DNA of 25,734 nt from Fimicolochytrium jonesii. Its lineage: Eukaryota. Under the pieces are notes generated by a model, which saw only the letters and a list, made by a program, of their open reading frames with translations, did no database searches and had not been told where the DNA came from. The number at the start of each line of letters is the position of its first letter. Position 1 is the stretch's first letter. The position numbers were made by a program, and so were the translations under genes. Positions 3,012 through 25,734 of this stretch are shown here, piece by piece. The stretch is from positions 496,001-521,734 of the forward strand of contig NW_026515690.1 in NCBI RefSeq assembly GCF_025526975.1, written 5' to 3'.

Positions 3012-3351
3012 CAGGGTGGGCGGAAAGACATAGAGGCCAGGGCGTTGTGTGCAAGCGAGCAGAGCGTTGCCGAGAAGTCCTGGATGTGAAATGGGGATGC
3101 AGGAGGCTCCAGAGACTTGAAAACTGGCCATATATCCACTGCTACTCCCGAGGTCACTGTCAGTAGCATCCTACCCTAAAGAACCCACCCTAAAGAACCC
3201 TAAAGAACTGAACAAAAGCATCGGGGTCCATGGCGATTCGGGCATCGGCAGCGCTACTAACGATCGAGCAGGTGAATGACTTGCCTCCATTTAAGTCGCC
3301 AATGGGTGACACTATCATCAACTCCGGGGCTTTCATACGCTCAGACACGTA

Positions 3352-3869
3352 CAGTACCCTGGCAAAAGTTTTGGGAACGCACGCGTTTCAATTATAAACA
3401 ATTAGAATAATCGCTTACCGAAGGGCTCTAATTGACAACCATGCATACTGGACTTTAGCGCATGGGAGTGATACGGTCGGATTGTCCAGAAGCAGGAGCA
3501 TACTCAATCTACATAGTAGTCAAGTCTGAAAACAATCTACATAGTAGTCAAGTCTGAAAACTGTCTGGTTGTCAACTTATTGTCCGTTGAAGTCGGAAGA
3601 GCCGTCCTCCCATAATTGATTTTCAGGTCCAATTAGAGAAAAAACTTAAACCAATCTTCTCCATGGTATCCTGCCCAAACCTACTTGACAAAGCGCATGG
3701 CCAGTTATAAGGAAAACAAGCGGATCAACAGGAAGCTTATATTTGTCTCTATGGGCGGATTTAAGTTTAGTGCATAATTGTGAACTTTACCCAGTAGCAA
3801 AAGAAGACGGATTTTCTAATTGTTTGTAATTGAAACGCGTGCATCCCAAAAACTTTTGTCAGGGTACTG
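3352..3869. mobile_element. Non-autonomous Tc1/mariner-type MITE, 518 bp
   Basis: About 56-bp imperfect TIRs (CAGTACCCTGGCAAAAGTTTTGGGAACGCACGCGTTTCAATT... and ...AATTGAAACGCGTGCATCCCAAAAACTTTTGTCAGGGTACTG) flanked by TA at 3350-3351 and 3870-3871. AT-rich interior, no ORF. Confidence 0.9.
3505..3560. repeat. 28-bp perfect tandem duplication inside the MITE
   Basis: CAATCTACATAGTAGTCAAGTCTGAAAA x2. Confidence 0.95.
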
Positions 3870-3871
3870 TA

Positions 3872-4922: not shown

Positions 4923-6301
4923 CAGCCAATGGACATAAACCTGTGCACCCCCTCTAATCGAATTCAATGACCGTTTCACAAGCGGATGCGCGTTCCATCC
5001 AGCCTGCCTCCGGACAAGCCAGGATCTTACCGACATGCCCGCAATTGCGACCTCCATCTTCATCCCCTGCTATGGGCAAACCACTCTCCCCTCAGCAGAG
5101 GGCTGCCATAGTGGCGCTGCACAGGTCAGGCAAGAACAAGCGACAAATAGCTGCACAGGAGGGGGTTGCATTCAGGACTGTTCAGTATACTATCAAGAAG
5201 TTTGCTGCTGAATCTGCGGACAGCCCACCGTCCTATCAGTCAAAAAAGCCACCGGGAAGACCAGCTAAGTATCAACCAGAGGACGGTGACTTGGAGGAGT
5301 TCCGCAGACTTGTTCTCTCAGATATTCAGACACGAGAAAAGACATTAAAACAAATTCGGTTGGAACTCATCCCTCTTACAGGTATCACGGCATGCGAAAA
5401 GACAGTGCGTCCTTACCTTCACAAACTCCTCCATTTGACCTCCCGCTTCAAAATCCACAAGCCGTTTTTGTCTGACAAGCACAAAGCAGCACGCCTTGCG
5501 TTTGCGTTGGAACATCAGCACTGGACAGTTGCGGATTGGTCACGGGTTGTGTGGACGGATGAGACGTCTTTTGATATTGGCTGGGTTCCCAAAATGCGAT
5601 GTTGGCGTCTGCGAACTGAACATTTTCACCCTGACTGTATCAGAGGCACTCGACGTAGCGGATGCAAAACATTTATGTATTGGGGAGCATTTATTGGAAA
5701 CGCTGTTGGTCCGTTGACGCAGGTCCAGCCGGTTCAGCGTGAGGGCCAAGTTTGCGGTAGGGGTATCAATTCCACTGCTTACGTTCAGCATTTAACCGCT
5801 CATCTTTTGCCAATGTGGCAAAACCTTGAGATTTTTGTTCCCAACCTCCTTTTCATGCAGGACAACGCCCCTATCCACACTTCTGCCAAAACGCGCCAAT
5901 TCTTTGCGGAGCATGGCATCAACATCATGCCGTAGCCAGCGCAGAGCCCCGATCTCAACCCAATTGAAAACCTCTGGGCGATTGTCAAGCGGGAGGTATC
6001 GCGGGCTAATGCAAATGCAGATGGTGTTGTGCAGCAGGTGTGGCCAACAGTGGAAAGGCATTTGGATAACCTAGTTGGATCGATGCCGACAAGGATGCAG
6101 GCAGTCATTGTTGCAAACGGAGGAACGACACGGTATTAATAAGGGTATTAGGCAGGAACCGAAGTCTAGATTTCATCTAGATTAGGTTCCTTATTGATCC
6201 CCGAGACTAAGGATGATGAGTCCGCGTCTAAATCAGTTGCGGCAACGCGACCGGTCACTGACTTAGTCTCAAGGGGTGCACAGCTTTATGTCCGTTGGCT
6301 G
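4923..6301 (+). mobile_element. Full-length Tc1/mariner DNA transposon, 1379 bp
   Basis: 29-bp TIRs CAGCCAATGGACATAAACCTGTGCACCCC (4923-4951) and GGGGTGCACAGCTTTATGTCCGTTGGCTG (6273-6301), 2 mismatches. TA duplication at 4921-4922 and 6302-6303. Internal transposase frame. Confidence 0.96.
5072..6139 (+). pseudogene. Tc1-family DD34E transposase with one premature stop
   Basis: N-terminal HTH region and PPGRP motif; catalytic WTDE, QDNAPIH and SPDLNPIE with 34 residues between the second D and the E. The conserved W of WPAQSPDLNPIEN is TAG (5933-5935); the frame continues to TAA at 6137-6139. Confidence 0.93.
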
Positions 6302-6574: not shown

Positions 6575-6650
6575 GGTTAGGGTTAGGGTCAAGGACGATC
6601 GGCCTTGAATTCTCGAAGACGTGCAGATCTAGGGTTAGGGTTAGGGTTAG
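6575..6650 (+). repeat. Short interstitial TTAGGG tracts
   Basis: GGTTAGGGTTAGGGT at 6575-6589 and TAGGGTTAGGGTTAGGGTTAG at 6630-6650, same polarity as the terminal array. Confidence 0.8.
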
Positions 6651-7409
6651 CTCGGCGAAAGCGTCAAGGGGAGGGGGGGTTAATTCAGTACATCAGTGGC
6701 CGGCATTGAATGCTCAAAACCGACGTCGTTCCATGTTCTCGTCAGGGTCGCGAGGTTGCGTGGTTCAGAGTGAGCTTGGAAAGACCCCTGAGTTTGTTGA
6801 ACAATAACAACTACGTACAAAGGAAGTCCATTATTTTCCAATGCTCCGCGAGATGAAGGAGACCTTAACCAGGGCCCATTAGCACTGCAGTTGCAAAAAT
6901 CGCATTTCCGCCGCATCAAATACTTCCTCCGATGATTCTGTGGTTCGCTCTCATTACACTTTCGGTCAAATGGACATTCTGGGCTAGATGAATACTGTGT
7001 ATTGCTATTGGTTCCATTCACTTTGAATTTGAGAGGCAACTGACCGGCGTGAGGAGCGCCATGAGAACCCTGGCATTCACCAGTATTCCGTTTTTCTTCG
7101 GAAAAATATGATTCCGAACGCCAAAGGGTTAGCTTAGCTCGGCGTGAGAGGTCAGTTGAGGAAGGATGTTTATGGTCTCCGCTACTCTTTCGTGTGAAGC
7201 AAACTGTCCATGTTCGATCGAGTGCCAATCCCGCCAACAGTCAATGTGCTCTCATACGCGCCATGCCGTCACTTCCAGGGTTTCTCGCTTGGACACAACG
7301 AGATGACTGTTGATGTCGCATGCAGTCTCTACAAAACGACTCCTCACGGAATGGTCTATCCTCCTGTGCAACTACAAGCATATATTAACTTATTTCAAAC
7401 GGTGTCAGT

Positions 7410-8450
7410 ATGAGCGGTTGCGCCACAACCCTCACCGGCGGGATCGCTGTCGCAACTACCCCAACCAGCACCGCCATGCCTCCGGGGACGACCAGCTTCG
7501 GCAATGTGTTTGGGAACCTCACCCCTCGAATCTGCCAAGGCTCGTATACCTTCCAATTCTCCGTCTTGGATCAAGGCCCCTATGCGCGGTGCACCGTCGG
7601 CGTCTTCTACCGGTACGACTCGGCGACTGAATGGTGGAAGAACGCGATCCAGTTCATCCTGCCCCCCGCCACGGCCAGCGAATGCAACCTCGTCATCGGC
7701 CCGGACGACGATACCTCCAAATGGACACTGGGCGCCTGGCAGGAGACGGGATATTACTGGCAAAGTCTCAACTACGGCTTGCAACCGCAGACCAATTCTT
7801 CGATCCCGGTTTGCGTCAATACTTTACCCTCAGCCACAAACGACCCTTCCCTGACCCCGACGATGACCACGACGACGACGACGAACGGTCAACCCGACAC
7901 CCAGGCATTGCTGCAGAACTCGGGAGTCGTTGTCCCTTGGACCAAGCAGGAGATATCCATCACCAAACCGGTGCTGGTGGGCGGAGTCATCGGCATCGCT
8001 CTCGGCGGCGCGGCGCTCGCCCTCCTCGGGACTACGCTCTACTGGTTCCTGAAGCGCAAAAGGAATGAAGGGGAGAGGAAGGTCGGGCCGAACATCGAGG
8101 CGCCATCATCTCCTGTGTCACACGCCCCCAAGATGCAGCGTGGAGGAGAGACGCCTCATGGAGGGGATACGGAGGAGGCTCCTGCCGTCACGGGCATGCA
8201 CCCGGTGCGGGATGTTGGTGTCTGTCCTACCCCCGCCGTTGCTCATCCTTACAGCGAGAAGCAGGCGCAGGGGGAGACAGAGATGGGAAGTGGTAGAGAA
8301 GATGCAGGTGACGCTGCCCATTCTGCTTCCGGCAGGCAGGACCCTGAAATAGATCCTGAATTGGAAGAAGCTTCTGCGGAAACGGCTGGGCTTGGCCAGC
8401 GGACGTCGTTCGTCCCGCAACCCTCTGCTGCTGAACTCGAGCGCACATGA
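7410..8450 (+). CDS. Single-pass membrane protein (Cys-containing ectodomain, Thr-rich stalk, TM helix, disordered tail); upstream exon(s) likely
   Basis: 346-aa GC-rich ORF with a poly-Thr stalk and hydrophobic VLVGGVIGIALGGAALALLGTTLYWFL followed by KRKR. A branch/acceptor-like TTAAC...CAG lies just upstream (7385-7408). Confidence 0.75.
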   Translation: MSGCATTLTGGIAVATTPTSTAMPPGTTSFGNVFGNLTPRICQGSYTFQFSVLDQGPYARCTVGVFYRYDSATEWWKNAIQFILPPATASECNLVIGPDDDTSKWTLGAWQETGYYWQSLNYGLQPQTNSSIPVCVNTLPSATNDPSLTPTMTTTTTTNGQPDTQALLQNSGVVVPWTKQEISITKPVLVGGVIGIALGGAALALLGTTLYWFLKRKRNEGERKVGPNIEAPSSPVSHAPKMQRGGETPHGGDTEEAPAVTGMHPVRDVGVCPTPAVAHPYSEKQAQGETEMGSGREDAGDAAHSASGRQDPEIDPELEEASAETAGLGQRTSFVPQPSAAELERT

Positions 8451-11111: not shown

Positions 11112-11123
11112 TTAGGGTTAGGG

Positions 11124-11164
<41 letters not shown>

Positions 11165-11404
11165 GGTTAGGGTTAGGGTTAGGGTTAGGGTTAGGGTTAG
11201 GGTTAGGGTTAGGGTTAGGGGTTAGGGTTAGGGTTAGGGTTAGGGTTAGGGTTAGGGTTAGGGTTAGGGTTAGGGTTAGGGTTAGGGTTAGGGTTAGGGT
11301 TAGGGTTAGGGTTAGGGTTAGGTATAGGGTTAGGGTTAGGGTTAGGGTTAGGGTTAGGGTTAGGGTTAGGGTTAGGGTTAGGGTTAGGGTTAGGGTTAGG
11401 GTTA
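11112..11404 (+). repeat. Telomeric (TTAGGG)n tract 1, the innermost
   Basis: About 290 bp of TTAGGG with a few variant units. Confidence 0.99.
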
Positions 11405-12443
11405 CAAGACCCCCTGGGTTGGGTTTTATTTTTGGGTTGCCTGGAACCCTAGGGACTTAGAAATTTTCGGGTTTTTTGGCTTTTGGGTGTGTTCTACAGT
11501 TCAAATTCTTGACTCTGAGGGGTGTGGTGGCGGGGGGTGTTGCGCACCTAGGCAAGTCAGGGGGGACTAGGTGTGCAAGGGCAAGTGATGGGTCATATGG
11601 GTGGTGGTGCGGGTACGGGGGGGGGGGCAGGGGTGCCAATAGGGGAGGGGGGGGGGTTGATATAAAGGGGAAATATATGTTATATATACGTTATAGGACT
11701 TGTGCAAATTGGGATTTTTTTAGTGCCGATCTGGAGTTGGCGTCCTAATTAAAAGTTGGCCCCATATCATATTCTCTAATTGAAGTACTCTCGGATTGGC
11801 AATCCGTGCGGAAACGGCTTCAGAAACTTAGAAAAACGAAATTTTCACGCGACGGGGGGTAAAAAGTTGGAAAATGTGGTGATATCTCAACATCTGGCTG
11901 ACTATCCAGTGGAGGGCACTTAATGAAAGTTGATTGTAGCCTATGGTTTGCATAGCTGATGTGGTAGCAAATCTTGTGTAACCTTGCTTTTGGCTGAAGA
12001 ACAGGGCCCCTTTTCAATTCTCAAGTAGTGACCCCCAAGACCTCCTAACAAAAGACACGAGTACGTATGTGCAGGCAAAGGGGTTTGGCTGTGTTCTCCA
12101 GTAAACATTTTGTGATTCCGCTGTGCATCGTAGACTGTTTGTAGGACCGTTGCGGAATGTCATTTACCAAAACTGTTGAACATTTTCCGTTTAAAGCAGT
12201 GTTCTACAGTTTGTCCATGCAGGTTAGAGCACGTGACCTGGGCTTGCTTGCAGGGTATGCAGAGTGAGAGGGTTGGGGTTAGAGATTTCCCAGATCACTT
12301 ATTAAATTCAGCCAAACTGTCTCTGTCATGGAACATTTAAAATGGTGGAAAGTAGTATTGCATTTATTGATTTAGAGTACATTGGAAAAGCGCACATTCA
12401 GAAAAGGGTTTTGGTGTAAAGTTATCAACGACATTCAACAGTA

Positions 12444-14012
12444 CTAAAGGACTTCCGCAAGCATGTCACGGACTTGGTTCTGTCCAAAAGTCGTACGGCA
12501 CTCAGGGTACCTGGCGCAGCGGAGACGGAAACGATGCTGACCGCCAATGCTATGAAAAGCTGAGCCTCCACAGTTGGGACATTGAAGCTGATCACGATGC
12601 TGATGGAAGAGTTCACGGATATTGCCAATGGGAGCAGCATCAGGCACTTCCCCATCCCCATGACCCCACCAAGCACGAGCAGGATCAATGACGGGTGCAA
12701 TGCCTTTGAACCATCCGGGATTGAAACCAAAAGAGTTGAGAACATCTCGGAAGCGCTGACAGTCTGTCACAGTAGTCTGTCTATTGCGATCTCCTCTGAA
12801 TAGAACTCTGGTGGCAGCGTCCATGATGCCATTGATGAGACTGTAGTACTCTTCCACCGGCACAAGCTTCAAGGAGTTTGCGCCCATGTGCTGGAAAATG
12901 GTCTCGATCTGGTCCAAATGGAGATTCAAAACCATCTGTTCCGCTGATTCCAACCTGGCGCACTGAACTCGCACTTCAACTCGCATGCCAGTAATGTGGA
13001 GCGGGTGACCGTTGAGCCATTGACGTAAACCTCTCAGTGTCTCACTGCGATCACCAAGGCTGGACTTGGTTTGGGGCATTCGCGAAGACAAAGTCGAAGA
13101 GTAGGCTTTGAGCGCATGAACAAGCTTTGGGTAGCAAGTAACCCGAACATTGGCGTGACCCGCAATGTCAAAGCGGGTGGACCCAAATCCCTCACCAAGG
13201 ATGGTGAGCATGGGAAAGGTGGCTCCAACTCCACGTCCATTGTAGCAAACCAAAGGAATGACACCACGAGTGTTGAATGTCTGACCAATGTCCCATGTGT
13301 TGAGTGCAGCATCGGGATGGTTGCTCACTTCCTGGTCAAAGGAGTAGGCTGGCAAAGTCTGAATGCGTTGCTTCATTCCATACTGCACAATGCGTACAGA
13401 GGGTGACACAGCACCAATGATGTCCTGGAACCCAGACATCAACAGATTTTGCCGCCCAGCAATCAATCGTGAGTGATCCGTGCTTTCCCTCACGATGATC
13501 GAATGTTCATTGTGAAGTAACTCAAGAATCCTTGCCTTCGACTCTGGATTGAATGGAATGCTAATGACACAAGGTCTGCTAGCGATCCGCATCCAACCGG
13601 CGAAAGCTTCACTGTCCTTGATATGCTGCATCACTCCAGACAGTTCAACCAAGGTGAAGGCACCAAAGAGGGTGGTCAGCTTTGTGGTAGGGAGCGTAAA
13701 GGCCATCCAGTCCACATCAAAGTAGCCAGTACTGCGGAAGACCCCAAACTGCTCATCCTGAAGGGCAGGAGAGCGATGGTGTTCCTCATGTGAAGAGCTT
13801 GAGCGAGAAGTTGGCAACTCGATGTCCTCACGCCCCTCATCACTATGATGATGAGGGTTGGAGCTGTGTGAACCAGAAATGGACAACTCCACATCCAAAC
13901 TGCCGATGCTGGATGAGGTCTGGGAGATTTCGACCTGAAGGCTGGTGTTCGACATGGATGAGGTAAGGCTCGACGGCGAAAGGGTGTTGTTGGTGAATGC
14001 GGTGAAAGGCAT
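12444..14012 (-). CDS. Family A protein, 522 aa: Ser-rich N-terminus, putative Rep_trans/gpII-like nickase core, C-terminal topoisomerase-type C4 zinc ribbon
   Basis: Intronless ORF kept open in three copies, with a paralog in family B. Motifs DVDWMAFT, QYGMK, WDIG, TCYPK, GMRVEVR and CPNC-x17-CARYPEC. The CDS is well supported; the function is inference. Confidence 0.85.
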   Translation of the reverse strand: MPFTAFTNNTLSPSSLTSSMSNTSLQVEISQTSSSIGSLDVELSISGSHSSNPHHHSDEGREDIELPTSRSSSSHEEHHRSPALQDEQFGVFRSTGYFDVDWMAFTLPTTKLTTLFGAFTLVELSGVMQHIKDSEAFAGWMRIASRPCVISIPFNPESKARILELLHNEHSIIVRESTDHSRLIAGRQNLLMSGFQDIIGAVSPSVRIVQYGMKQRIQTLPAYSFDQEVSNHPDAALNTWDIGQTFNTRGVIPLVCYNGRGVGATFPMLTILGEGFGSTRFDIAGHANVRVTCYPKLVHALKAYSSTLSSRMPQTKSSLGDRSETLRGLRQWLNGHPLHITGMRVEVRVQCARLESAEQMVLNLHLDQIETIFQHMGANSLKLVPVEEYYSLINGIMDAATRVLFRGDRNRQTTVTDCQRFRDVLNSFGFNPGWFKGIAPVIDPARAWWGHGDGEVPDAAPIGNIRELFHQHRDQLQCPNCGGSAFHSIGGQHRFRLRCARYPECRTTFGQNQVRDMLAEVL

Positions 14013-14165
14013 GGTGTTGGCCCTGGTGTTGGCGATGGTATTGGTGTCGGTATTGGCGTAGGTGCTGAAATGTGGTGGTGGTGCGTGCTTTTGGAGGGAG
14101 GGAATCTGAACAGCCCTCTCCTTTTATAAAAGTCTGGCCAAAGGCAACCTGGAGCTGTTCTTCAG

Positions 14166-14338
14166 TTTTTTTCTGCAACCCTACCTTTTTTTTTTCCTAA
14201 CTTTTTTTTTCCCCTTTTTTGTTTTCACTACTCCTTTTTTTTCGTGACTTTTTTTTTTCACTACTCCTTTTTTTTTTTCGGACTTTTTTTTTTTCCACTA
14301 ATCCTTTTTTTTTCGACTTTTTTTTTTCACTAAACTTT
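14166..14338. repeat. T-rich tandem repeat in family A
   Basis: Units of about 32-37 bp, CACTA(C/A)TCC-Tn-CG(N)GAC-Tn, starting at 14226, 14259, 14296 and a partial unit at 14328. Confidence 0.85.
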
Positions 14339-14413
14339 TTAGGGTTAGGGTTAGGGTTAGGGTTAGGGTTAGGGTTAGGGTTAGGGTTAGGGTTAGGGTT
14401 AGGGTTAGGGTTA
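14339..14413 (+). repeat. Telomeric tract 2
   Basis: (TTAGGG)n between A1 and A2. Confidence 0.99.
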
Positions 14414-17217
14414 CAAGACCCCCTGGGTTGGGTTTTATTTTTGGGTTGCCTGGAACCCTAGGGACTTAGAAATTTTCGGGTTTTTTGGCTTTTGGGTGTG
14501 TTCTACAGTTCAAATTCTTGACTCTGAGGGGTGTGGTGGCGGGGGGTGTTGCGCACCTAGGCAAGTCAGGGGGGACTAGGTGTGCAAGGGCAAGTGATGG
14601 GTCATATGGGTGGTGGTGCGGGTACGGGGGGGGGGGGCAGGGGTGCCAATAGGGGAGGGGGGGGGGTTGATATAAAGGGGAAATATATGTTATATATACG
14701 TTATAGGACTTGTGCAAATTGGGATTTTTTTAGTGCCGATCTGGAGTTGGCGTCCTAATTAAAAGTTGGCCCCATATCATATTCTCTAATTGAAGTACTC
14801 TCGGATTGGCAATCCGTGCGGAAACGGCTTCAGAAACTTAGAAAAACGAAATTTTCACGCGACGGGGGGTAAAAAGTTGGAAAATGTGGTGATATCTCAA
14901 CATCTGGCTGACTATCCAGTGGAGGGCACTTAATGAAAGTTGATTGTAGCCTATGGTTTGCATAGCTGATGTGGTAGCAAATCTTGTGTAACCTTGCTTT
15001 TGGCTGAAGAACAGGGCCCCTTTTCAATTCTCAAGTAGTGACCCCCAAGACCTCCTAACAAAAGACACGAGTATGTATGTGCAGGCAAAGGGGTTTGGCT
15101 GTGTTCTCCAGTAAGCATTTTGTGATTCCGCTGTGCATCGTAGACTGTTTGTAGGACCGTTGCGGAATGTCATTTACCAAAACTGTTGAACATTTTCCGT
15201 TTAAAGCAGTGTTCTACAGTTTGTCCATGCAGGTTAGAGCACGTGACCTGGGCTTGCTTGCAGGGTATGCAGAGTGAGAGGGTTGGGGTTAGAGATTTCC
15301 CAGATCACTTATTAAATTCAGCCAAACTGTCTCTGTCATGGAACATTTAAAATGGTGGAAAGTAGTATTGCATTTATTGATTTAGAGTACATTGGAAAAG
15401 CGCACATTCAGAAAAGGGTTTTGGTGTAAAGTTATCAACGACATTCAACAGTACTAAAGGACTTCCGCAAGCATGTCACGGACTTGGTTCTGTCCAAAAG
15501 TCGTACGGCACTCAGGGTACCTGGCGCAGCGGAGACGGAAACGATGCTGACCGCCAATGCTATGAAAAGCTGAGCCTCCACAGTTGGGACATTGAAGCTG
15601 ATCACGATGCTGATGGAAGAGTTCACGGATATTGCCAATGGGAGCAGCATCAGGCACTTCCCCATCCCCATGACCCCACCAAGCACGAGCAGGATCAATG
15701 ACGGGTGCAATGCCTTTGAACCATCCGGGATTGAAACCAAAAGAGTTGAGAACATCTCGGAAGCGCTGACAGTCTGTCACAGTAGTCTGTCTATTGCGAT
15801 CTCCTCTGAATAGAACTCTGGTGGCAGCGTCCATGATGCCATTGATGAGACTGTAGTACTCTTCCACCGGCACAAGCTTCAAGGAGTTTGCGCCCATGTG
15901 CTGGAAAATGGTCTCGATCTGATCCAAATGGAGATTCAAAACCATCTGTTCCGCTGATTCCAACCTGGCGCACTGAACTCGCACTTCAACTCGCATGCCA
16001 GTAATGTGGAGCGGGTGACCGTTGAGCCATTGACGTAAACCTCTCAGTGTCTCACTGCGATCACCAAGGCTGGACTTGGTTTGGGGCATTCGCGAAGACA
16101 AAGTCGAAGAGTAGGCTTTGAGCGCATGAACAAGCTTTGGGTAGCAAGTAACCCGAACATTGGCGTGACCCGCAATGTCAAAGCGGGTGGACCCAAATCC
16201 CTCACCAAGGATGGTGAGCATGGGAAAGGTGGCTCCAACTCCACGTCCATTGTAGCAAACCAAAGGAATGACACCACGAGTGTTGAATGTCTGACCAATG
16301 TCCCATGTGTTGAGTGCAGCATCGGGATGGTTGCTCACTTCCTGGTCAAAGGAGTAGGCTGGCAAAGTCTGAATGCGTTGCTTCATTCCATACTGCACAA
16401 TGCGTACAGAGGGTGACACAGCACCAATGATGTCCTGGAACCCAGACATCAACAGATTTTGCCGCCCAGCAATCAATCGTGAGTGATCCGTGCTTTCCCT
16501 CACGATGATCGAATGTTCATTGTGAAGTAACTCAAGAATCCTTGCCTTCGACTCTGGATTGAATGGAATGCTAATGACACAAGGTCTGCTAGCGATCCGC
16601 ATCCAACCGGCGAAAGCTTCACTGTCCTTGATATGCTGCATCACTCCAGACAGTTCAACCAAGGTGAAGGCACCAAAGAGGGTGGTCAGCTTTGTGGTAG
16701 GGAGCGTAAAGGCCATCCAGTCCACATCAAAGTAGCCAGTACTGCGGAAGACCCCAAACTGCTCATCCTGAAGGGCAGGAGAGCGATGGTGTTCCTCATG
16801 TGAAGAGCTTGAGCGAGAAGTTGGCAACTCGATGTCCTCACGCCCCTCATCACTATGATGATGAGGGTTGGAGCTGTGTGAACCAGAAATGGACAACTCC
16901 ACATCCAAACTGCCGATGCTGGATGAGGTCTGGGAGATTTCGACCTGAAGGCTGGTGTTCGACATGGATGAGGTAAGGCTCGACGGCGAAAGGGTGTTGT
17001 TGGTGAATGCGGTGAAAGGCATGGTGTTGGCCCTGGTGTTGGCAATGGTATTGGTGTCGGTATTGGCGTAGGTGCTGAAACGTGGTGGTGGTGCGTGCTT
17101 TTGGAGGGAGGGAATCTGAACAGCCCTCTCCTTTTCTAAAAGTCTGGCCAAAGGCAACCTGGAGCTGTTCTTCAGTTTTTTTCTGCAACCCTACCTTTTT
17201 TTTTTCCTAACTTTTTT
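14414..17217 (-). mobile_element. Family A copy 2 (2804 bp)
   Basis: Near-identical to A1 (offset 3009-3010, few substitutions). Same start junction; ends earlier inside the T-rich tract. Confidence 0.9.
15454..17022 (-). CDS. Family A protein, copy 2 (522 aa from the ATG equivalent to copy 1)
   Basis: Translation matches A1 from MPFTAF to the stop. The ORF-track extension to 17157 uses a non-ATG start. Confidence 0.85.
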   Translation of the reverse strand: MPFTAFTNNTLSPSSLTSSMSNTSLQVEISQTSSSIGSLDVELSISGSHSSNPHHHSDEGREDIELPTSRSSSSHEEHHRSPALQDEQFGVFRSTGYFDVDWMAFTLPTTKLTTLFGAFTLVELSGVMQHIKDSEAFAGWMRIASRPCVISIPFNPESKARILELLHNEHSIIVRESTDHSRLIAGRQNLLMSGFQDIIGAVSPSVRIVQYGMKQRIQTLPAYSFDQEVSNHPDAALNTWDIGQTFNTRGVIPLVCYNGRGVGATFPMLTILGEGFGSTRFDIAGHANVRVTCYPKLVHALKAYSSTLSSRMPQTKSSLGDRSETLRGLRQWLNGHPLHITGMRVEVRVQCARLESAEQMVLNLHLDQIETIFQHMGANSLKLVPVEEYYSLINGIMDAATRVLFRGDRNRQTTVTDCQRFRDVLNSFGFNPGWFKGIAPVIDPARAWWGHGDGEVPDAAPIGNIRELFHQHRDQLQCPNCGGSAFHSIGGQHRFRLRCARYPECRTTFGQNQVRDMLAEVL

Positions 17218-17352
17218 TTAGGGTTAGGGTTAGGGTTAGGGTTAGGGTTAGGGTTAGGGTTAGGGTTAGGGTTAGGGTTAGGGTTAGGGTTAGGGTTAGG
17301 GTTAGGGTTAGGGTTAGGGTTAGGGTTAGGGTTAGGGTTAGGGTTAGGGTTA
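17218..17352 (+). repeat. Telomeric tract 3
   Basis: (TTAGGG)n between A2 and B1. Confidence 0.99.
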
Positions 17353-19530
17353 CAGGACTGTTCCGGGTTATGGGTTATTTTTGGTGGTCCGGAAAGTGTC
17401 AAAAATAGGTGCTAGCAATGTTCAGGGGCGTCTTACTGTACTGTACATAAAATTGTGGGGCATGTTTTCCACTCAATGCTCCCGGAAAATCCGTTTTTCA
17501 GATTTTTTACTATGAAAATGTGACCAAAACGCATTTTCTGAAGCTCTGAGTGGATGGAATTTGCTTGAAGTGGAATATGTCTCAGAAAACATCCCCAAAA
17601 ACATCTAGGAACCTTCATCTACTCTAGTATTCATCAACTCCTGGCACTTTTTGTTTCCAGGCAATATGGGGGTGTTCTCCAGTTGGTGGCGAATGGCTCA
17701 TTTTGGTTTGCTCTCAATTTGCTACATGTTCAAATCCTTTTGAGGCCCAAATACTTTCTTTTCTTCCACTGCTCCTCCTGATGGTGGAGGATGGCAAATG
17801 CCTTTTTGCATTGCAATACATGGATATGACAGGGTGTTTGTCAACCAGCAAATCATGCAAAAAGCATGCAGTGCATGTCCGTTTGCATGCACTATGTCAT
17901 CCGCACCACCTTGGACACCTGAGGAAAGTTGTGCGGATTTGAAAGATAATATAGTTACGGAAGTGGAACCAGGGAGATTCAATGACTATTGAAGGAGCTA
18001 TGGCACACGTAAGTCCCCAGGGGTGGGACTTAGAGAATTTTCAAAGATTTTGGTGACTCATGGCGCAGGTTTGATTCTCAGAGGGGGCCAGGCCTTCTTT
18101 TCTTTTTTTCCTCCTTCAAAATGTCTTTAAATACGTCTAGCATTGCTTGACAGTGTCAGGAAACAATCAAAAAGCTGAGAAGTGCAGGTAAAAAGTGTTT
18201 TTGGCCGATCTACAAGCAAAACATGCGAAAAACCGGCGGTGCGTGTCCATTCGCATGCACTACATCATCCGTTCCACCTTGGCCATCCAAGGCAATGGTG
18301 CGGATTCAAAAGATAGTATAGGTACGGAAGGGAAACCAGGGAGATTCAATCACTATTGACAGAGCTATGGCACCCGCAAGCTCCAATGGGTGGGACTTAG
18401 AGAATTTTCGAAAATTTTGCATTTTGCGCCGTCTGGTTGACCTGACCAAACACAGGTAACATTCTACCGACAGACATTGGCATAGTGGCAAGTGCTAATG
18501 TTATCTGAACTAGTGCCCCAAGTTCCAACCCCGGTTTTGCTGGGGATACTTTTTTTTTTCTTTTTCCCGCGCCACCCGAAACACGATGTGGGCGTAACGA
18601 AAGTTGTAGCCAGATATATGTTCTCATAGTTAAAGTCATCTCAGATGTGCAATTAAGCTGTAAACGGCTGCAGAAAATGCAAAAAACAAAATAGGATTGA
18701 CGCTTTTCTCAAAATCCAACACCACCTGGAATGCATTAAAGCCAGTCCATACACATGTCCTTTACCTAGGAACCCCCTACAGATGAATTCCCATAGTCCC
18801 CGGACACCCATAGCGCACTCTATACAACTCTACTATGCACGCATACTGGTTAGGGTTAGCCTGCGCCCTATCTGGCGAATACGTTTTCAATGCATTTCAT
18901 CGATGGCAAATAGCGCAGTTGCATAAGATACTCAATTCACAACCGAGGGTGCATGGTTCAAACCTTGCGTTCGACACAACAACAGAGGGATTTTTCCGGG
19001 GGCAAAATAAATATCACCATGCACCCATATCAATACGATGTGGACTGGATGGCGGTTACGATCAGTTTAACTGATCTTAACCAGCTGTTCGATAGGTCCA
19101 CCATTGTCCAAATGGCGGGCGCTCGTCCGCCGTTCAAGGATGACCCATTCTATAAGGAATGGATTACGGTTGTGAGCCAACCGTTCATACTGAGCATCCC
19201 GCCGAGTCGGGGTGTTAGAGAGGGGATCATTGAGGGATTATATAGGGACCATGGAATAATTGTGCGGGGGAGTGACAGCCCTAATAGCACGATTCAGGGC
19301 AGACAGCATGTGGCGTTGGATACCCTGATTGGGACCTTGTCGGAATGCGTTGAAGGGGGAATGGTTAGGATAGTGCAGTACGGGATGAAGGCTTACTGGG
19401 AGACCATGGCAGCGAAGGATGCGGTCTACGAGAGTTCAGGGGGCCGGTCGAATACCTTCGACATAGGATTGATGATCAGGAGCATGGATATCCCGGTGCT
19501 GAGGGGACGAGATGAGGCAGGGGATGAGGG
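17353..19530 (+). mobile_element. Telomere-embedded element, family B copy 1 (longest, about 2.18 kb)
   Basis: Starts GGGTTA|CAGGACTGTTCC. 1.6 kb non-coding arm, then a + strand ORF homologous to the A protein, cut by TTAGGG. Four shorter copies in the window. Confidence 0.88.
17847..18419. repeat. Diverged direct repeat of about 205 bp inside B1 (17847-18052 and 18215-18419)
   Basis: Shared blocks GCATGCACTA, CCACCTTGG, AACCAGGGAGATTCAAT, GAGCTATGGCAC and GGGTGGGACTTAGAGAATTTTC at a spacing of about 367 bp. Confidence 0.9.
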
Positions 19531-19534
19531 TTAG
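18953..19534 (+). pseudogene. 3'-truncated family B protein, paralog of the family A protein
   Basis: Colinear matches to A: DVDWMA.T, SIP, H.IIVR, GRQ, VRIVQYGMK, NT.DIG. The stop codon comes from the telomere repeat. Likely start ATG 19019 (CACCATG) or 18953. Confidence 0.85.
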
Positions 19535-19581
19535 GGTTAGGGTTAGGGTTAGGGTTAGGGTTAGGGTTAGGGTTAGGGTTA
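19527..19581 (+). repeat. Telomeric tract 4
   Basis: (TTAGGG)n. Confidence 0.99.
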
Positions 19582-19704
19582 CAAGACCCCCTGGGTTGGG
19601 TTTTATTTTTGGGTTGCCTGGAACCCTAGGGACTTAGAAATTTTCGGGTTTTTTGGCTTTTGGGTGTGTTCTACAGTTCAAATTCTTGACTCTGAGGGGT
19701 GTGG
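19582..19704. mobile_element. Family A copy 3 (123-bp terminal fragment)
   Basis: Matches A1 from CAAGAC to GGGGTGTGG. Confidence 0.9.
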
Positions 19705-19776
19705 GTTAGGGTTAGGGTTAGGGTTAGGGTTAGGGGTTAGGGTTAGGGTTAGGGTTAGGGTTAGGGTTTAGGGTTA
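19703..19776 (+). repeat. Telomeric tract 5
   Basis: (TTAGGG)n with variant units. Confidence 0.98.
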
Positions 19777-20068
19777 CAGGACTGTTCCCGGTTATGGGTT
19801 ATTTTTGGCCATCCAAAAAGTGTCAAATAAAGTTGCTAGCAATGTTCAGGGGCATCTTACTGTAATGTGCTTCAAATCTTGGGGCATGTTTTCCACTCAA
19901 TGCCCCGGGAAAATCTGTTTTTCCGATTTTTTACTATGAAAATATTGCCAAAATGCATTTTCTGAAACTCTGAGTGGATGGATTCCGCTTAAAGTGGAAT
20001 ATGTCTCGGAAAACATCCCCAAAAACATCTAGGAACCTTCATCTACTCTAGTATTCATCAACTCCTGG
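19777..20068. mobile_element. Family B copy 2 (292-bp terminal fragment)
   Basis: Starts CAGGACTGTTCCC and ends CAACTCCTGG, followed by a short TTAGGG tract (20067-20084). Confidence 0.9.
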
Positions 20069-20084
20069 GTTAGGGTTAGGGTTA

Positions 20085-20807
20085 CAGGACTGTTCCCGGT
20101 TATGGGTTATTTTTGGCCATCCAAAAAGTGTCAAATAAAGTTGCTAGCAATGTTCAGGGGCATCTTACAGTAATGTGCCTCAAATTTTGGGGCATGTTTT
20201 CCACTCAATGCCCCAGGAAAATCTGTTTTTCCGATTTTTTACCATGAAAATATTGCCAAAATGCATTTTCTGAAACTCTGAGTGGATGGATTTCGCTTAA
20301 AGTGAGATATGTCTCAGAAAACATCCCAAAAACATCTAGGAACCTTCATCTACTCTAGTATTCATCAACTCCTGGTACTTTTTGTTTCCAGGCAATATGG
20401 GGGTGTTCTCCAGTTGGCAGCAAATGACCCATTTTGGTTTGCTCTCAATTTGCTCCATGTTCAAATCCTTTTAAGGCCCAAATACTTTCTTTTCTTCCAT
20501 TGCTCCTCCTGTTGGTGGAGGATGGCAAATGCCTTTTTGCATTGCAATACATGGATATGACAGGGTGTTTGTCAACCAGCAAATCATGCAAAAAGCATGC
20601 AGTGCATGTCTATTTGCATGCCCTATGTCATCCGTACCACCTTGGACACCCAAGGAAAGGTATGCGGACTCAAAAGAAAATATACTTACGGAAGTGGAAC
20701 CAGGGAGATTCAATGACTATTTAACGAGCTATGGCACACGTAAGTTCCCAGGAGTGGGACTTAGCACAATTTGAGAAAACATATCAGAGGAACTGGAGAA
20801 CACACTC
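20085..20807. mobile_element. Family B copy 3 (723 bp)
   Basis: Colinear with B1 up to GGGACTTAG (20764), then 43 bp not found in B1, then a short TTAGGG tract (20808-20822). Confidence 0.9.
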
Positions 20808-20822
20808 TTAGGGTTAGGGTTA

Positions 20823-20928
20823 CAAGACCCCCTGGGTTGGGTTTTATTTTTGGGTTGCCTGGAACCCTAGGGACTTAGAAATTTTCGAGTTTTTTGGCTT
20901 TTGGGTGTGTTCTACAGTTCAAATTCTT
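20823..20928. mobile_element. Family A copy 4 (106-bp terminal fragment)
   Basis: CAAGAC to CAAATTCTT, followed by a TTAGGG tract at 20929-20985. Confidence 0.9.
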
Positions 20929-20985
20929 TTAGGGTTAGGGTTAGGGTTAGGGTTAGGGTTAGGGTTAGGGTTAGGGTTAGGGTTA

Positions 20986-23400
20986 CAAGACCCCCTGGGT
21001 TGGGTTTTATTATTGGGTTGCCTGGAACCCTAGGGACTTAGAAATTTTCGAGTTTTCTGGCTTTTGGGTGTGTTCTACAGTTCGAATTTTTGACTCTGAG
21101 GGATGTAGTGGCGGGGGGGTGTTGCGCACCTAGGCAAGTCGGGGAGGACTAGGTGTGCAAGGGCAAGTGATGGGTCATATGGGCGGTGGTGCGGGTACGG
21201 GGGGCGGCAGGGGTGCCAATAGGGGGGGGGGGGGTTGATGTAAAGGGGACATATATGTTATATATACGTTATAGGACTTGTGCAAATTGGGATTCTTATA
21301 GTGCCGATCCGGAGTTGGCGTCCTAATTGAAAAGTTGGACCCATATCATATTCTCTAATTGAAGTACTCTCGGATTGGCAATCCGTGCGGAAACGGCTTC
21401 AGAAACTTAGAAAAACGAAATTTTCACGCGACGGGGGGTAAAAAGTTGGAAAATGTGGTGATATCTCAACATCTGGCTGACTATCCAGTGTAGGGCACTT
21501 AATGAAAGTTGATTGTAGCCTATGGTTTGCATAGGCTGATGTGGTAGCAAATCTTGTGTAACCTTGCTTTTGGCTGAAGAACAGGGCCCCTTTTCAATTC
21601 TCAAGTAGTGACCCCCAAGACCTCCTAACAAAAGACACGAGTACGTATGTGCAGGCAAAGGGGTTTGGCTGTGTTCTCCAGTAAACATTTTGTGATTCCG
21701 CTGTGCATCGTAGACTGTTTGTAGGACCCTTGCGGAATGTTATTTACCAAAACTGTTGAACATTTTCCGGTTAAAGCAGTGTTCTACAGTTTGTCCATGC
21801 AGGTGAGAGCACGTGACCTGGGCTTGCTTGCAGGGTACGCAGAGTGAGAGGGTTAGGGTTAGAGATTTCCCAGATCACTTATTAAATTCAGCCAAACTGT
21901 CTCTGTCATGGAACATTTAAAATGGTGGGAAGTAGTATTGCATTTATTGATTTAGAGTACATTGGAAAAGCGCACATTCAGAAAAGGGTTTTGGTGTAAC
22001 GTTATCAACGGCATTCAACAGTACTAAAGGACTTCCGCAAGCATGTCACGGACTTGGTTCTGTCCAAAAGTCGTACGGCACTCAGGGTACCTGGCGCAGC
22101 GGAGACGGAAACGATGCTGACCGCCAATGCTATGAAAAGCTGAGCCTCCACAGTTGGGACATTGAAGCTGATCACGATGCTGATGGAAGAGTTCACGGAT
22201 ATTGCCAATGGGAGCAGCATCAGGCACTTCCCCATCCCCATGACCCCACCAAGCACGAGCAGGATCAATGACGGGTGCAATGCCTTTGAACCATCCGGGA
22301 TTGAAACCAAAAGAGTTGAGAACATCTCGGAAGCGCTGACAGTCTGTCACAGTAGTCTGTCTATTGCGATCTCCTCTGAATAGAACTCTGGTGGCAGCGT
22401 CCATGATGCCATTGATGAGACTGTAGTACTCTTCCACCGGCACAAGCTTCAAGGAGTTTGCGCCCATGTGCTGGAAAATGGTCTCGATCTGGTCCAAATG
22501 GAGATTCAAAACCATCTGTTCTGCTGATTCCAACCTGGCGCACTGAACTCGCACTTCAACTCGCATGCCAGTAATGTGGAGCGGGTGACTGTTGAGCCAT
22601 TGACGTAAACCTCTCAGTGTCTCACTGCGATCCCCAATGCTGGACTTGGTTTGGGGCATTCGCGAAGACAAAGTCGAAGAAGAGGCTTTGAGCGCATGAA
22701 CAAGCTTTGGGTAGCAAGTAACCCGAACATTGGCGTGACCCGCAATGTCAAAGCGGGTGGACCCAAATCCCTCACCAAGGATGGTGAGCATGGGAAAGGT
22801 GGCGCCAACTCCACGTCCATTGTAGCAAACCAAAGGAATGACCCCATGAGTGTTCAACGTCTGACCAATGTCCCATGTGTTCAGTGCAGCATCGGGATGG
22901 TTGCTCACTTCCTGATCAAAGGAATAAGCTGGCAAAGTCCGAATGCGTTGCTTCATTCCATACTGCACAATGCGTACAGAGGGTGACACAGCACCAATGA
23001 TGTCCTGGAACCCAGACATCAACAGATTTTGCCGCCCAGCAATCAATCGTGAGTGATCCGTGCTTTCCCTCACGATGATCGAATGTTCATTGTGAAGTAA
23101 CTCAAGAATCCTTGCCTTTGACTCTGGATTGAATGGAATGCTAATGACACAAGGTCTGCTAGCGATCCGCATCCAACCGGCGAAAGCTTCACTGTCCTTG
23201 ATATGCTGCATCACTCCAGACAGTTCAACCAAGGTGAAGGCACCAAAGAGGGTGGTCAGCTTTGTGGTAGGGAGCGTAAAGGCCATCCAGTCCACATCAA
23301 AGTAGCCAGTACTGCGAAAGACCCCAAACTGCTCATCCTGAGGGGCAGGAGAGTGATGGTGTTCCTCATCTGAAGAGCTTGAGCGAGAAGTTGGCAACTC
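20986..23400 (-). mobile_element. Family A copy 5 (2415 bp, variant subtype)
   Basis: Colinear with A1 but with more substitutions than A2. Truncated inside the ORF's Ser-rich N-terminus. Confidence 0.9.
22024..23400 (-). pseudogene. Family A ORF, 5'-truncated by telomere repeats
   Basis: Frame is open and all motifs are retained, but the first ~64 codons including the ATG are replaced by telomere repeat. Confidence 0.85.
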
Positions 23401-23449
23401 TTAGGGGTTAGGGTTAGGGTTAGGGTTAGGGTTAGGGTTAGGGTTAGGG

Positions 23450-23490
<41 letters not shown>

Positions 23491-23551
23491 GGTTAGGGTT
23501 AGGGTTAGGGGTTAGGGTTAGGGTTAGGGTTAGGGTTAGGGTTTAGGGTTA
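23401..23551 (+). repeat. Telomeric tract between A5 and B4
   Basis: (TTAGGG)n with TTAGGGG and TTTAGGG variants. Confidence 0.98.
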
Positions 23552-23903
23552 CAGGACTGTTCCCGGTTATGGGTTATTTTTGGCCATCCAAAAAGTGTCA
23601 AATAAAGTTGCTAGCAATGTTCAGGGGCATCTTACTGTAATGTGCTTCAAATCTTGGGGCATGTTTTCCACTCAATGCCCCGGGAAAATCTGTTTTTCCG
23701 ATTTTTTACTATGAAAATATTGCCAAAATGCATTTTCTGAAACTCTGAGTGGATGGATTTCGCTTAAAGTGAGATATGTCTCAGAAAACATCCCCAAAAA
23801 CATCTAGGAACCTTCATCTACTCTAGTATTCATCAACTCCTGGCACTTTTTGTTTCCAGGCAATATGGGGGTGTTCTCCAGTTGGCGGCGAATGACTCAT
23901 TTT
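23552..23903. mobile_element. Family B copy 4 (352 bp), interrupted by an LTR
   Basis: B homology stops at GACTCATTTT, directly before TG at 23904. Confidence 0.88.
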
Positions 23904-24329
23904 TGCTATGATCTCGGGGACGGAGGCGGAAGCGAAGTAGAGAAGACAGGGCGAGAGTGATAGGCGACAAGAGATTTTATTGGCAAAACAAGAAACAAGG
24001 ACTAGAACAGGAGATGAGAAGAACTGGTGTTGATCTGCTGGGGAGGAAGGGAACGGACAAAGAGAGGCCGGCTATTTATAGATAGGCAACCCAGCAGATC
24101 AGAGAACTACAACAACAAGAGGGGACTGGGGGGGCATCAGCTATGCTCCTAGAGCGTGCGTGGCGAGCGTAGAGAGCATTGCTACAGCTGCTGGCTATGG
24201 GGAAGTAGTGGGGGGTGTGGAGAAGCCGAGGGGGGGATTGGCGAAATGAGAGGAGAGAGGAGGAGTGGCGATATTGCAAGAGGATTGGCAAAATGAGAGG
24301 AGAGAGGGGGAGTGGCATTGACATTGACA
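23904..24329 (-). mobile_element. Single LTR of an LTR retrotransposon, 426 bp
   Basis: Minus strand reads TGTCAATG...CATAGCA (TG..CA with imperfect inverted ends). U3-like 34-bp direct repeat (24236-24269 and 24283-24316), TATAAATA (24073-24080) and AATAAA (23976-23981) occur in canonical order. Confidence 0.75.
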
Positions 24330-24382
24330 GGGTAGGGTTAGGGTTAGGGTTAGGGTTAGGGTTAGGGTTAGGGTTAGGGTTA
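24329..24382 (+). repeat. Telomeric tract after the LTR
   Basis: AGGGTAGGG followed by (TTAGGG)n. Confidence 0.98.
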
Positions 24383-24957
24383 CAAGACCCCCTGGGTTGG
24401 GTTTTATTATTGGGTTGCCTGGAACCCTAGGGACTTAGAAATTTTCGAGTTTTCTGGCTTTTGGGTGTGTTCTACAGTTCGAATTTTTGACTCTGAGGGA
24501 GGTAGTGGCGGGGGGTATTGCGCACCTAGGCAAGTCGGGGAGGACTAGGTGTGCAAGGGCAAGTGATGGGTCATATGGGCGGTGGTGCGGGTACGGGGGG
24601 GGGGGGTTGATATAAAGGGGACATATATGTTATATATACGTTATAGGACTTGTGCAAATTGGGATTTTTCTAGTGCCGATCCGGAGTTGGCGTCCTAATT
24701 GAAAAGTTGGCCCCATATCATATTCTCTAATTGAAGTACTCTCGGATTGGCAATCCGTGCGGAAACGGCTTCAGAAACTTAGAAAAACGAAATTTTCACG
24801 CGACGGGGGGTAAAAAGTTGGAAAATGTGGTGATATCTCAACATCTGGCTGACTATCCAGTGTAGGGCACTTAATGAAAGTTGATTGTAGCCTATGGTTT
24901 GCATAGCTGATGTGGTAGCAAATCTTGTGTAACCTTGCTTTTGGCTGAAGAACAGGG
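24383..24957. mobile_element. Family A copy 6 (575 bp, A5-like subtype)
   Basis: CAAGAC to GAAGAACAGGG, with a small deletion between G-runs near 24600. Followed by a TTAGGG tract at 24954-24991. Confidence 0.9.
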
Positions 24958-24991
24958 TTAGGGTTAGGGGTTAGGGTTAGGGTTAGGGTTA

Positions 24992-25245
24992 CAGGACTGT
25001 TCCCGGTTATGGGTTATTTTTGGCCATCCAAAAAGTGTCAAATAAAGTTGCTAGCAATGTTCAGGGGCATCTTACTGTAATGTGCTTCAAATCTTGGGGC
25101 ATGTTTTCCACTCAATGCCCCGGGAAAATCTGTTTTTCCGATTTTTTACTATGAAAATATTGCCAAAATGCATTTTCTGAAACTCTGAGTGGATGGATTT
25201 CGCTTAAAGTGAGATATGTCTCAGAAAACATCCCCAAAAACATCT
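24992..25245. mobile_element. Family B copy 5 (254 bp)
   Basis: CAGGAC to AAAAACATCT, matching B4. Followed by a TTAGGG tract at 25245-25420. Confidence 0.9.
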
Positions 25246-25420
25246 TAGGGTTAGGGTTAGGTTAGGGTTAGGGTTAGGGTTAGGGTTAGGGTTAGGGTTA
25301 GGGTTAGGGTTAGGGTTAGGGTTAGGGTTAGGGTAAGGGTTAGGGTTAGGGTTAGGGTTAGGGTTAGGGTTAGGGTTAGGGTTAGGGTTAGGGTTAGGGT
25401 TAGGGTTAGGGTTAGGGTTA

Positions 25421-25476
25421 CAAGACCCCCTGGGTTGGGTTTTATTTTTGGGTTGCCTGGAACCCTAGGGACTTAG
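25421..25476. mobile_element. Family A copy 7 (56-bp terminal fragment)
   Basis: CAAGAC to GGGACTTAG. Confidence 0.88.
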
Positions 25477-25734
25477 GGTAGGGTTAGGGTTAGGGTTAGG
25501 GTTAGGGTTAGGGTTAGGGTTAGGGTTAGGGTTAGGGTTAGGGTTAGGGTTAGGGTTAGGGTTAGGGTTAGGGTTAGGGTTAGGGTTAGGGTTAGGGTTA
25601 GGGTTAGGGTTAGGGTTAGGGTTAGGGTTAGGGTTAGGGTTAGGGTTAGGGTTAGGGTTAGGGTTAGGGTTAGGGTTAGGGTTAGGGTTAGGGTTAGGGT
25701 TAGGGTTAGGGTTAGGGTGGGTTAGGGGTTAGGG
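25473..25734 (+). repeat. Terminal telomeric (TTAGGG)n array
   Basis: G-rich strand runs 5'->3' to the end of the window, as expected at a right chromosome end. Confidence 0.97.

Follow-up and report, generated by a model that had tools for sequence, protein, structure and literature searches.

Organization of the locus

The stretch of Fimicolochytrium jonesii DNA analyzed here (the window, 25,734 nucleotides of contig NW_026515690.1) holds a chromosome end in its right half, where TTAGGG tracts (11112-25734) are interspersed with 12 copies of two repeat families, A and B (Table 1). The seven A copies all start with GGGTTA|CAAGAC, the bar marking the junction, at 11405, 14414, 19582, 20823, 20986, 24383 and 25421; the five B copies start with GGGTTA|CAGGAC, at 17353, 19777, 20085, 23552 and 24992. 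Copies are arranged head-to-tail, and the junction dinucleotide and the telomere phase are identical in all 12. Their far ends differ, and copy lengths range from 52 to 2933 bp. A copies 1 and 2 each carry an intact open reading frame (ORF) of 522 aa on the minus strand; the B ORF is directed away from the fixed end and the A ORF is oriented the opposite way. At the eight of 12 far junctions for which a longer reference copy exists, microhomology in phase with the telomere totals 10 nt, where 2.9 is the mean under the null (P about 0.005), with breakpoints set by hand and zero microhomology at four of the eight, which is consistent with capping by telomerase. A and B almost certainly represent a family of telomere-joined mobile elements.

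Some copies have peculiarities of their own. At 23552-24332, 363 bp of the B end continue into some 420 bp of unrelated sequence that has no long ORF; this is either a non-autonomous chimera or another, third family having the B end. The distal end of A (14180-14340, 17190-17219) is T-rich, and its G-strand contains degenerate versions of C-strand telomere words (cctaac, cactaa, cactac) that might base-pair with the next tract. Short telomere-like stretches occur at 18849-18858, 12272-12283, 21850-21862, 6577-6589 and 6630-6649; among them, one immediately precedes the B ORF, another is found in A, where it separates the stop codon from the fixed end, and two are subtelomeric, without the CA junction.

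Table 1. Features of the telomeric array and of the proteins it encodes, in window positions
Feature	Coordinates	Strand	Remarks
Innermost TTAGGG tract, target array	11112..11404	+	about 48 units
Fixed junction GGGTTA|CAAGAC, innermost A copy	11399..11424	+	predicted nick and strand-transfer site, G-rich strand
Family A element, longest copy (2933 bp)	11405..14337		T-rich distal end
Family A ORF, copy 1 (522 aa)	12444..14012	-	M1 at 14012
C-terminal C4 zinc ribbon (C478, C481, C499, C505)	12498..12581	-	cysteines 81-96% conserved
R344-x-E346	12975..12983	-	E346, predicted third metal ligand (RepSTK1 R194/E196)
G277 ... T292-x-Y294-P-K296 ... H299, K302	13107..13184	-	Y294, predicted nucleophile (RepSTK1 Y179)
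N238-x-x-D241	13290..13301	-	D241, predicted second metal ligand (RepSTK1 D116, assigned from motif order)
D99-x-D101	13710..13718	-	D101, predicted first metal ligand; register with RepSTK1 D9 / RepDE D46
Family A element, copy 2 (2803 bp)	14414..17216		intact ORF; 99.76% identity to copy 1
Family B element, fixed end GGGTTA|CAGGAC	17353..19530		truncated distally within its own ORF
Family B ORF, 5' fragment (172 aa)	19019..19534	+	first 170 aa (19019..19528) identical to P0002
Short truncated copies A124, B293, B723, A105	19582..20927		telomere tracts between
Family A copy, cut in the 5' part of the ORF	20986..23400		97.8% identity; 458 codons: 11 synonymous, 9 non-synonymous differences
Short truncated copies B781 (chimeric), A575, B253, A52	23552..25472		telomere tracts between
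Terminal TTAGGG tract, end of window	25473..25734	+	

The A/B protein family

The A protein comprises a low-complexity stretch (residues 1-95), a predicted TBP-fold, Rep_trans-like catalytic core (about 96-385), a helical region with conserved D423, G429 and WW448-449, and a C-terminal zinc ribbon whose Pfam matches are weak and below the cut-off (Zn_ribbon_IS1595, E 0.006; Zn_ribbon_Top1, E 0.22). The original prediction had recognized in this protein the motif order of a rolling-circle nickase, and the four motifs do follow each other as described on the minus strand: VDWMAFT (13695-13715, with D101), WDIG (13284-13295, D241), VTCYPK (13125-13142, Y294) and MRVEVR (12969-12986, R344/E346). 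It had also noted that the first two are kept in B. Both are indeed in the B fragment (VDW, FDIG), but P0002, the full-length form of B, also from F. jonesii, has VTVYPR and VRIEAR as well, so that all four are kept. In B and its close relatives (P0002-P0005, P0152) a Trp-rich stretch of about 70-110 aa extends the C-terminus; A has no such extension.

Word-index homologue searches returned P0002 and P0127 only. Searched with a profile of A and P0002, a set of 1.84 billion proteins yielded 302 at E<=1e-3; the best 150 of the 302 were used, and conservation was computed on 151 proteins (the query, P0002 and 149 other best matches). Among the proteins covering each site, D101 is found in 96 of 97, D241 in 126 of 129, Y294 in 137 of 140, R344 in 133 of 138 and E346 in 135 of 138, and of the 87 proteins whose sequence spans the four proposed catalytic positions, 84 have D, D, Y and E together. 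The conservation of Y294 and E346, a point on which the nickase prediction could have failed, thus extends across the alignment. Further near-invariant residues had not been noted before: D99 (98/98), K214 (125/127), N238 (118/124), G277 (138/138), H299 (140/140) and K302 (138/140); G429 and WW448-449 are also among the most invariant. Other parts of the predicted motifs vary. The xDWxxxT-like strand retains D101 but not W102. Relative to the R(-2) and K(+2) that surround the tyrosine in Rep_trans, position 292 is K in 131 of 138 proteins, yet T in A and B, and position 296 is R in 82, K in 12 and another residue in 46 of 140 (L in 12, H in 6), so the K of the proposed Y-x-K motif is not a family feature.

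All organism-named members among 30 proteins looked up come from fungi (three chytrids and three basidiomycetes, a count that includes P0002 and one cluster member); the remaining looked-up proteins are metagenomic, and the host range may exceed fungi. In a FastTree phylogeny of the 104 of 150 rows with at least 230 core residues, A and B cluster with P0003, P0004, P0005 and P0008 (support 0.99), separately from the clades holding basidiomycete names. An OTU protease lies at the C-terminus of 22 of the 63 longer members (21 above the Pfam cut-off); Helitrons can carry such a protease as cargo. The C-terminus of one member, P0134, weakly matches the Rap1 Myb-like domain (E 0.002, which is below the cut-off) and may be a module for telomere binding. 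No relative was found in viral contigs and prokaryotic genomes by a pattern scan sensitive to close relatives only, nor among 50,697 phage records by tblastn, and phmmer and profile searches of the PDB returned nothing but OTU domains from homologue tails.

A Rep_trans-like predicted fold

When the predicted core fold was compared with known structures, the Rep_trans crystal structures RepDE and RepSTK1 headed the match list, followed by TBP, rather than an unrelated fold. Rep_trans and TBP have a sheet topology in common (PMC4797284), and the model of the core contains the TBP-like curved beta-sheet of such catalytic domains. Foldseek gave RepDE 1.8e-4 and the next unrelated row 0.1, a gap of about 500-fold; no HUH or RNA-dependent RNA polymerase (RdRP) structure was among the top rows listed. 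The structural alignment starts by pairing model residue 1 with residue 4 of 4cij and residue 41 of 4cwc, which without gaps places model residue 6, D101, on D9/D46. The metal ligands of RepSTK1 are D9, D116 and E196 (PMC4797284). In the model, D101, D241 and E346 stand on separate strands (E4-13, E144-151, E248-255) in the Rep_trans order; the register of D101 comes from the alignment start, and D241 and E346 are assigned by motif order. These three residues are predicted to bind metal, with Y294 as the nucleophile. A homodimer model, predicted without an alignment, had a poorly folded partner chain.

The resemblance is partial. The Rep_trans motif R-x-D-x-A-x-D (R114, D116, A118, D120) is not kept: the family has N-x-[WF]-D-[IL]-G as its consensus, with positions 239 and 245 variable. 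From T-x-Y-x-G, the glycine is retained as G277, and the T and Y are not. Nevertheless, the fold matches together with the conserved Y294 and E346 support the earlier suggestion of a tyrosine nicking and strand-transfer enzyme, whose nicking itself we infer, and the A protein is, judging from this model, very probably a Rep_trans-like tyrosine nickase.

The fixed end in relatives

A metagenome scan with a distant sub-clade of the family yielded 62 loci (38 clusters after redundancy removal), all of the distant clade, whereas the close clade yielded no locus; the context of these loci thus comes from the distant clade, not from P0003-P0008 or full-length B. C-strand telomere tracts start on the ORF strand in 28 of 28 cases, preceded by TG in 19, TA in 6 and AA in 3. 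The GGGTTA|CA end (TG|TAACCC) present in 12/12 copies of the window therefore recurs at 19/28 tract starts in relatives. The ORF strand contains 27 occurrences of TGTAACCC and the opposite strand two, against a naive expectation of 4.9 (redundant loci counted). Downstream junctions lie about 190-1420 nt past the ORF. Among the 20 clusters whose downstream sequence reaches at least 800 nt, a permissive pattern finds a junction in 11 (two of them TA) and none in nine, several with broken ORFs. The tracts are TAAC(3-5); in the sections of PMC11185503 consulted, the telomeres of Cryptococcus and Kwoniella have TAAC(4,5) as their motif. Tandem elements with short tracts between them were found in L004, L026-L028, L034 and L045, and one element occurs on different flanks. 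Beyond the CA, the B end resembles the 12 metagenomic TG ends (top 0.3%), and the A end does not. Seventeen ends of 57 nt, folded with DNA parameters, gave 0 to -13 kcal/mol and no shared stem indicative of an origin hairpin.

The protein and the telomere-joined end co-occur across two phyla, as expected of a transposase and its cis end. It is likely that the ORF encodes the transposase of the element, a predicted TBP-fold, Rep_trans-like tyrosine transesterase.

The metagenomic loci show other traits. Among L002-L005, two clusters end in TA|TAACCC instead of TG|TAACCC and differ in terminal sequence, possibly a sub-family with altered end recognition. Many elements have tandem repeats of about 187 bp between the ORF and the fixed end. 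Contigs L004, L015, L022 and L026 have terminal overlaps of 126-173 nt, which may reflect circles or collapsed tandem arrays. An upstream ORF in 15 of the 62 loci (L009:944-2392, L013:983-2023, L022:4267-5724, L026:799-2226, L032:408-1868 and others) has the H-x-D ... H ... R spacing of a 2-oxoglutarate-Fe(II) dioxygenase. Its Tet_JBP match is sub-threshold (E 0.18, in one of six members), and it has no match in the PDB; it is possibly a TET/JBP-like DNA-modifying cargo, of the kind that fungal transposons can carry. Finally, a C2H2-like zinc-finger stretch lies upstream of the core in L008, L013, L017, L022, L033 and L034, split off by stops or frame changes, and is fused N-terminally to the core in P0076, P0056 and P0036. 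Candidate introns joining the zinc-finger exon to the core on the sense strand (L017, L018, L033, L034) have plausible GTGAGT donors and ambiguous acceptors; L022 has none.

Proposed mechanism and alternatives

We propose that the element probably moves as single-stranded DNA, by nicking of the G-strand and strand transfer onto the telomeric G-strand; all catalytic steps below are ones we infer. Nicking by Rep_trans-type enzymes generates a 3'-OH and couples the 5'-phosphate to the tyrosine (PMC13107129, as described in the parts consulted). The protein would first nick the G-rich strand at GGGTTA|CA, linking Y294 to the 5' C of the element. Host synthesis from the telomeric 3'-OH would then displace the element strand towards the chromosome end; since displacement runs to that end, a termination signal is not strictly required. 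A target GGGTTA-3'OH, from a nick at GGGTTA|GGG within a tract or from the 3' overhang, would attack the phosphotyrosine and restore GGGTTA|CA. The free 3' end, full-length or broken, would be capped by telomerase and the C-strand filled in. We favor the G-strand as the nicked strand because a nick at TG|TAACCC on the C-strand leaves the tyrosine on the telomere and primes synthesis away from the element. A DNA route is favored by the type of enzyme, the lack of a detected reverse transcriptase (RT), the opposite orientation of the B ORF and, weakly, the candidate introns.

Several results qualify this proposal. Pfam Rep_trans (PF02486) and Phage_CRI have no match in the query at E<=10 or in 63 homologues at E<=0.05. 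Alignment with hhalign to 12 RepSTK1/MobT sequences gave probabilities of 0.3-0.4% in five forward and global settings, with reversed controls scoring equally, although these non-significant alignments do set DVDW on CVDW and YP on FYEK. The A protein thus resembles Rep_trans and is not a sequence-level member of PF02486. In addition, one fixed end with variable far ends, taken initially as a sign of rolling-circle transposition, is not diagnostic, because MoTeR arrays look alike: their copies run head-to-tail with tracts between, truncated ends in them are healed de novo, and a further way in which they grow is break-induced replication (BIR; bioRxiv 10.1101/845669, in the portion available).

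In an unlikely alternative, a Rep_trans-like nickase only nicks at or near telomere tracts and the element spreads by host BIR or gene conversion, like a homing nickase or a Y' element, without strand transfer by the enzyme. A copies 1 and 2, 99.76% identical, form a tandem block with the tract between them, as such a process might leave; BIR and D-loop amplification are documented in MoTeR arrays, according to the same part of that source; and T292 of A and B takes the place of a residue of which the counterpart in RepD is important for religation. Yet recombination alone does not account for a CA terminus kept to the exact base, and in one telomere phase, by families whose proteins are 20-40% identical, nor for the finding that no more than 1-3 telomere units join one element to each of several unique flanks (L026/L027/L028, L004/L005).

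Arrays with head-to-tail copies, intervening tracts and distal truncations healed by telomere might also be built by an RNA-mobilized, MoTeR2-like non-autonomous retroelement, or by a protein acting as the nicking partner of an RT encoded elsewhere, through target-primed reverse transcription from the G-strand. The ORFs of A and of metagenomic elements with a downstream junction face the fixed end, like the sense strand of a retroelement. We nevertheless consider this decidedly improbable: no RT was found in the five ORFs of the window, the 63 homologues, 40 of the 104 other locus ORFs of at least 200 aa or the family ORFs scanned, nor a YxDD-like motif in locus ORFs of at least 300 aa; the fixed end lacks poly(A); the B ORF is antisense to the RNA required; and the possible sense-strand introns, with their ambiguous acceptors, weakly point the same way.

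Rep_trans enzymes are replication initiators, and the overlapping contig ends described above are expected of circles, which brings up an extrachromosomal rolling-circle replicon, plasmid- or single-stranded DNA virus-like, with telomere repeats in its origin and integrating at telomeres by homology. We give this little credence, since collapsed tandem arrays yield identical overlaps, no capsid or other viral gene was found in 40 locus ORFs, the viral and phage searches returned no relative, and the copies in the window are chromosomal and mostly truncated. Least probable of all is a generic likeness of TBP-type curved sheets in a protein that does something else, for instance bind telomeric DNA or act in an RdRP-related way, given the near-invariant D, D, E, Y and R in Rep_trans order on separate strands, the Foldseek gap and the absence of a DxDGD motif from the conserved columns.

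Comparison with known systems

The proposed strand-transfer enzyme shares with Rep_trans/MOBT proteins (the pT181-family RepC/RepD/RepDE, 4cwc and 4cwe; RepSTK1 of pSTK1, 4cij; inovirus gpII/Phage_CRI) the order D ... D ... G ... x-x-Y ... R-x-E, and the catalytic residues are on strands in both Rep_trans and the predicted A core. RepSTK1 reads CVDWLQVTF, ITRLDVAVDD, TLYFG, VRFYEK and NRTEIQL where A reads DVDWMAFTL, NTWDIGQT, GEGFG, VTCYPK and GMRVEVR. Unlike Rep_trans, the A family is below sequence detectability, has a reduced motif II and extra invariant residues (D99, K214, N238, H299, K302), contains large insertions and a C4 zinc ribbon, to which an OTU protease is often added, and has eukaryotic hosts; it resides in a chromosomal telomere-joined element rather than a plasmid, phage or integrative and conjugative element, and no conserved hairpin origin was found in the 57 nt folded per end. 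The Rep-Arvir archaeal rolling-circle endonucleases, compared here by description only from the accessible parts of PMC13107129, are alike in kind: they too are TBP-fold, Rep_trans-related proteins recognized by structure only; their Foldseek scores are similarly modest, their tyrosine motif (KHYYM) has diverged, and a conserved DNA element follows the gene. They differ in being replication initiators of archaeal viruses and plasmids without a link to telomeres.

HUH transposons (Helitrons, Replitrons, IS91/ISCR, IS200/IS605; PMC10288648, in part) likely share with A and B a tyrosine-linked transfer of single-stranded DNA without RT, and A/B elements also show orientation-specific insertion at a short target with one fixed end. 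In contrast to them, the A family is predicted to have a TBP-type rather than an RRM-type HUH fold, shows no terminal direct repeats and targets telomere repeats. Only H299 is invariant and there is no H-x-H among the conserved columns; no helicase, including the superfamily 1B PIF1 type of Helitrons, had a Pfam match in the query, 63 homologues or 40 locus ORFs. The retroelements MoTeR1/2, FoTeR and TRAS/SART also form head-to-tail arrays in TTAGGG tracts, in which the proximal end is fixed and telomere addition has healed the distal truncations, whereas A and B lack an RT and a restriction-enzyme-like or apurinic-type endonuclease, use another class of enzyme and have their ORF in either orientation. 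Ustilago maydis UTASa/UTASb are related to helicases and OrsD in the passages of PMC10532341 consulted; for that reason we did not equate them with the A/B family.

Other features of the window

The left part of the window holds an ankyrin-repeat ORF (489-1208, plus strand), a Tc1/mariner-type transposase ORF (4958-5935, plus; HTH_Tnp_Tc3_2, E 4e-10) and a third ORF, lacking any Pfam match, that contains a hydrophobic stretch resembling a membrane segment (7389-8450, plus). A 63-bp inverted repeat of 90% identity (3350-3412 / 3810-3871, about 400 bp apart) possibly marks the ends of a small non-autonomous DNA transposon.

Novelty and implications

Rep-mobilized transposons are listed as HUH, with no occurrence of 'telomer' or 'Rep_trans', in the parts consulted of PMC10288648, and Rep_trans appeared restricted to bacteria, extended only to archaea, in those of PMC13107129 (2026). 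For the terms searched, such an element is absent from the portions available of PMC8381367, PMC12857005, PMC13234504 and PMC10532341. We found no prior description in the literature searched; subscription journals, Repbase and supplements were outside its scope, and earlier naming is possible.

What we describe is an enzyme that would work like a Rep_trans relaxase in the role of an IS91/Helitron-style transposase, and that is neither PF02486 by sequence, nor HUH, nor part of a retrotransposon. On balance, we lean towards a new class of eukaryotic DNA transposons in chytrids and basidiomycetes, with the first eukaryotic TBP-fold, non-HUH rolling-circle tyrosine transesterase, which would recognize the telomere repeat, ligate its 5' end to the G-strand and use the chromosome end as terminator of strand displacement. 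Eukaryotic transposons are classed by their catalytic enzyme, and a fungal element with a Rep_trans-type enzyme would mean a new class of transposase and place the superfamily in the third domain of life. The telomere-targeting elements described in the fungal literature consulted, MoTeR and FoTeR, are retrotransposons, and a DNA element would represent a second route into this niche. Such an element may destabilize or extend chromosome ends. If our reading is true, it could lengthen telomeres without RNA, as a DNA counterpart of HeT-A/TART, and its enzyme would be a natural telomere-specific nickase-ligase, whose specificity for TTAGGG could provide a tool to label or edit telomeres.
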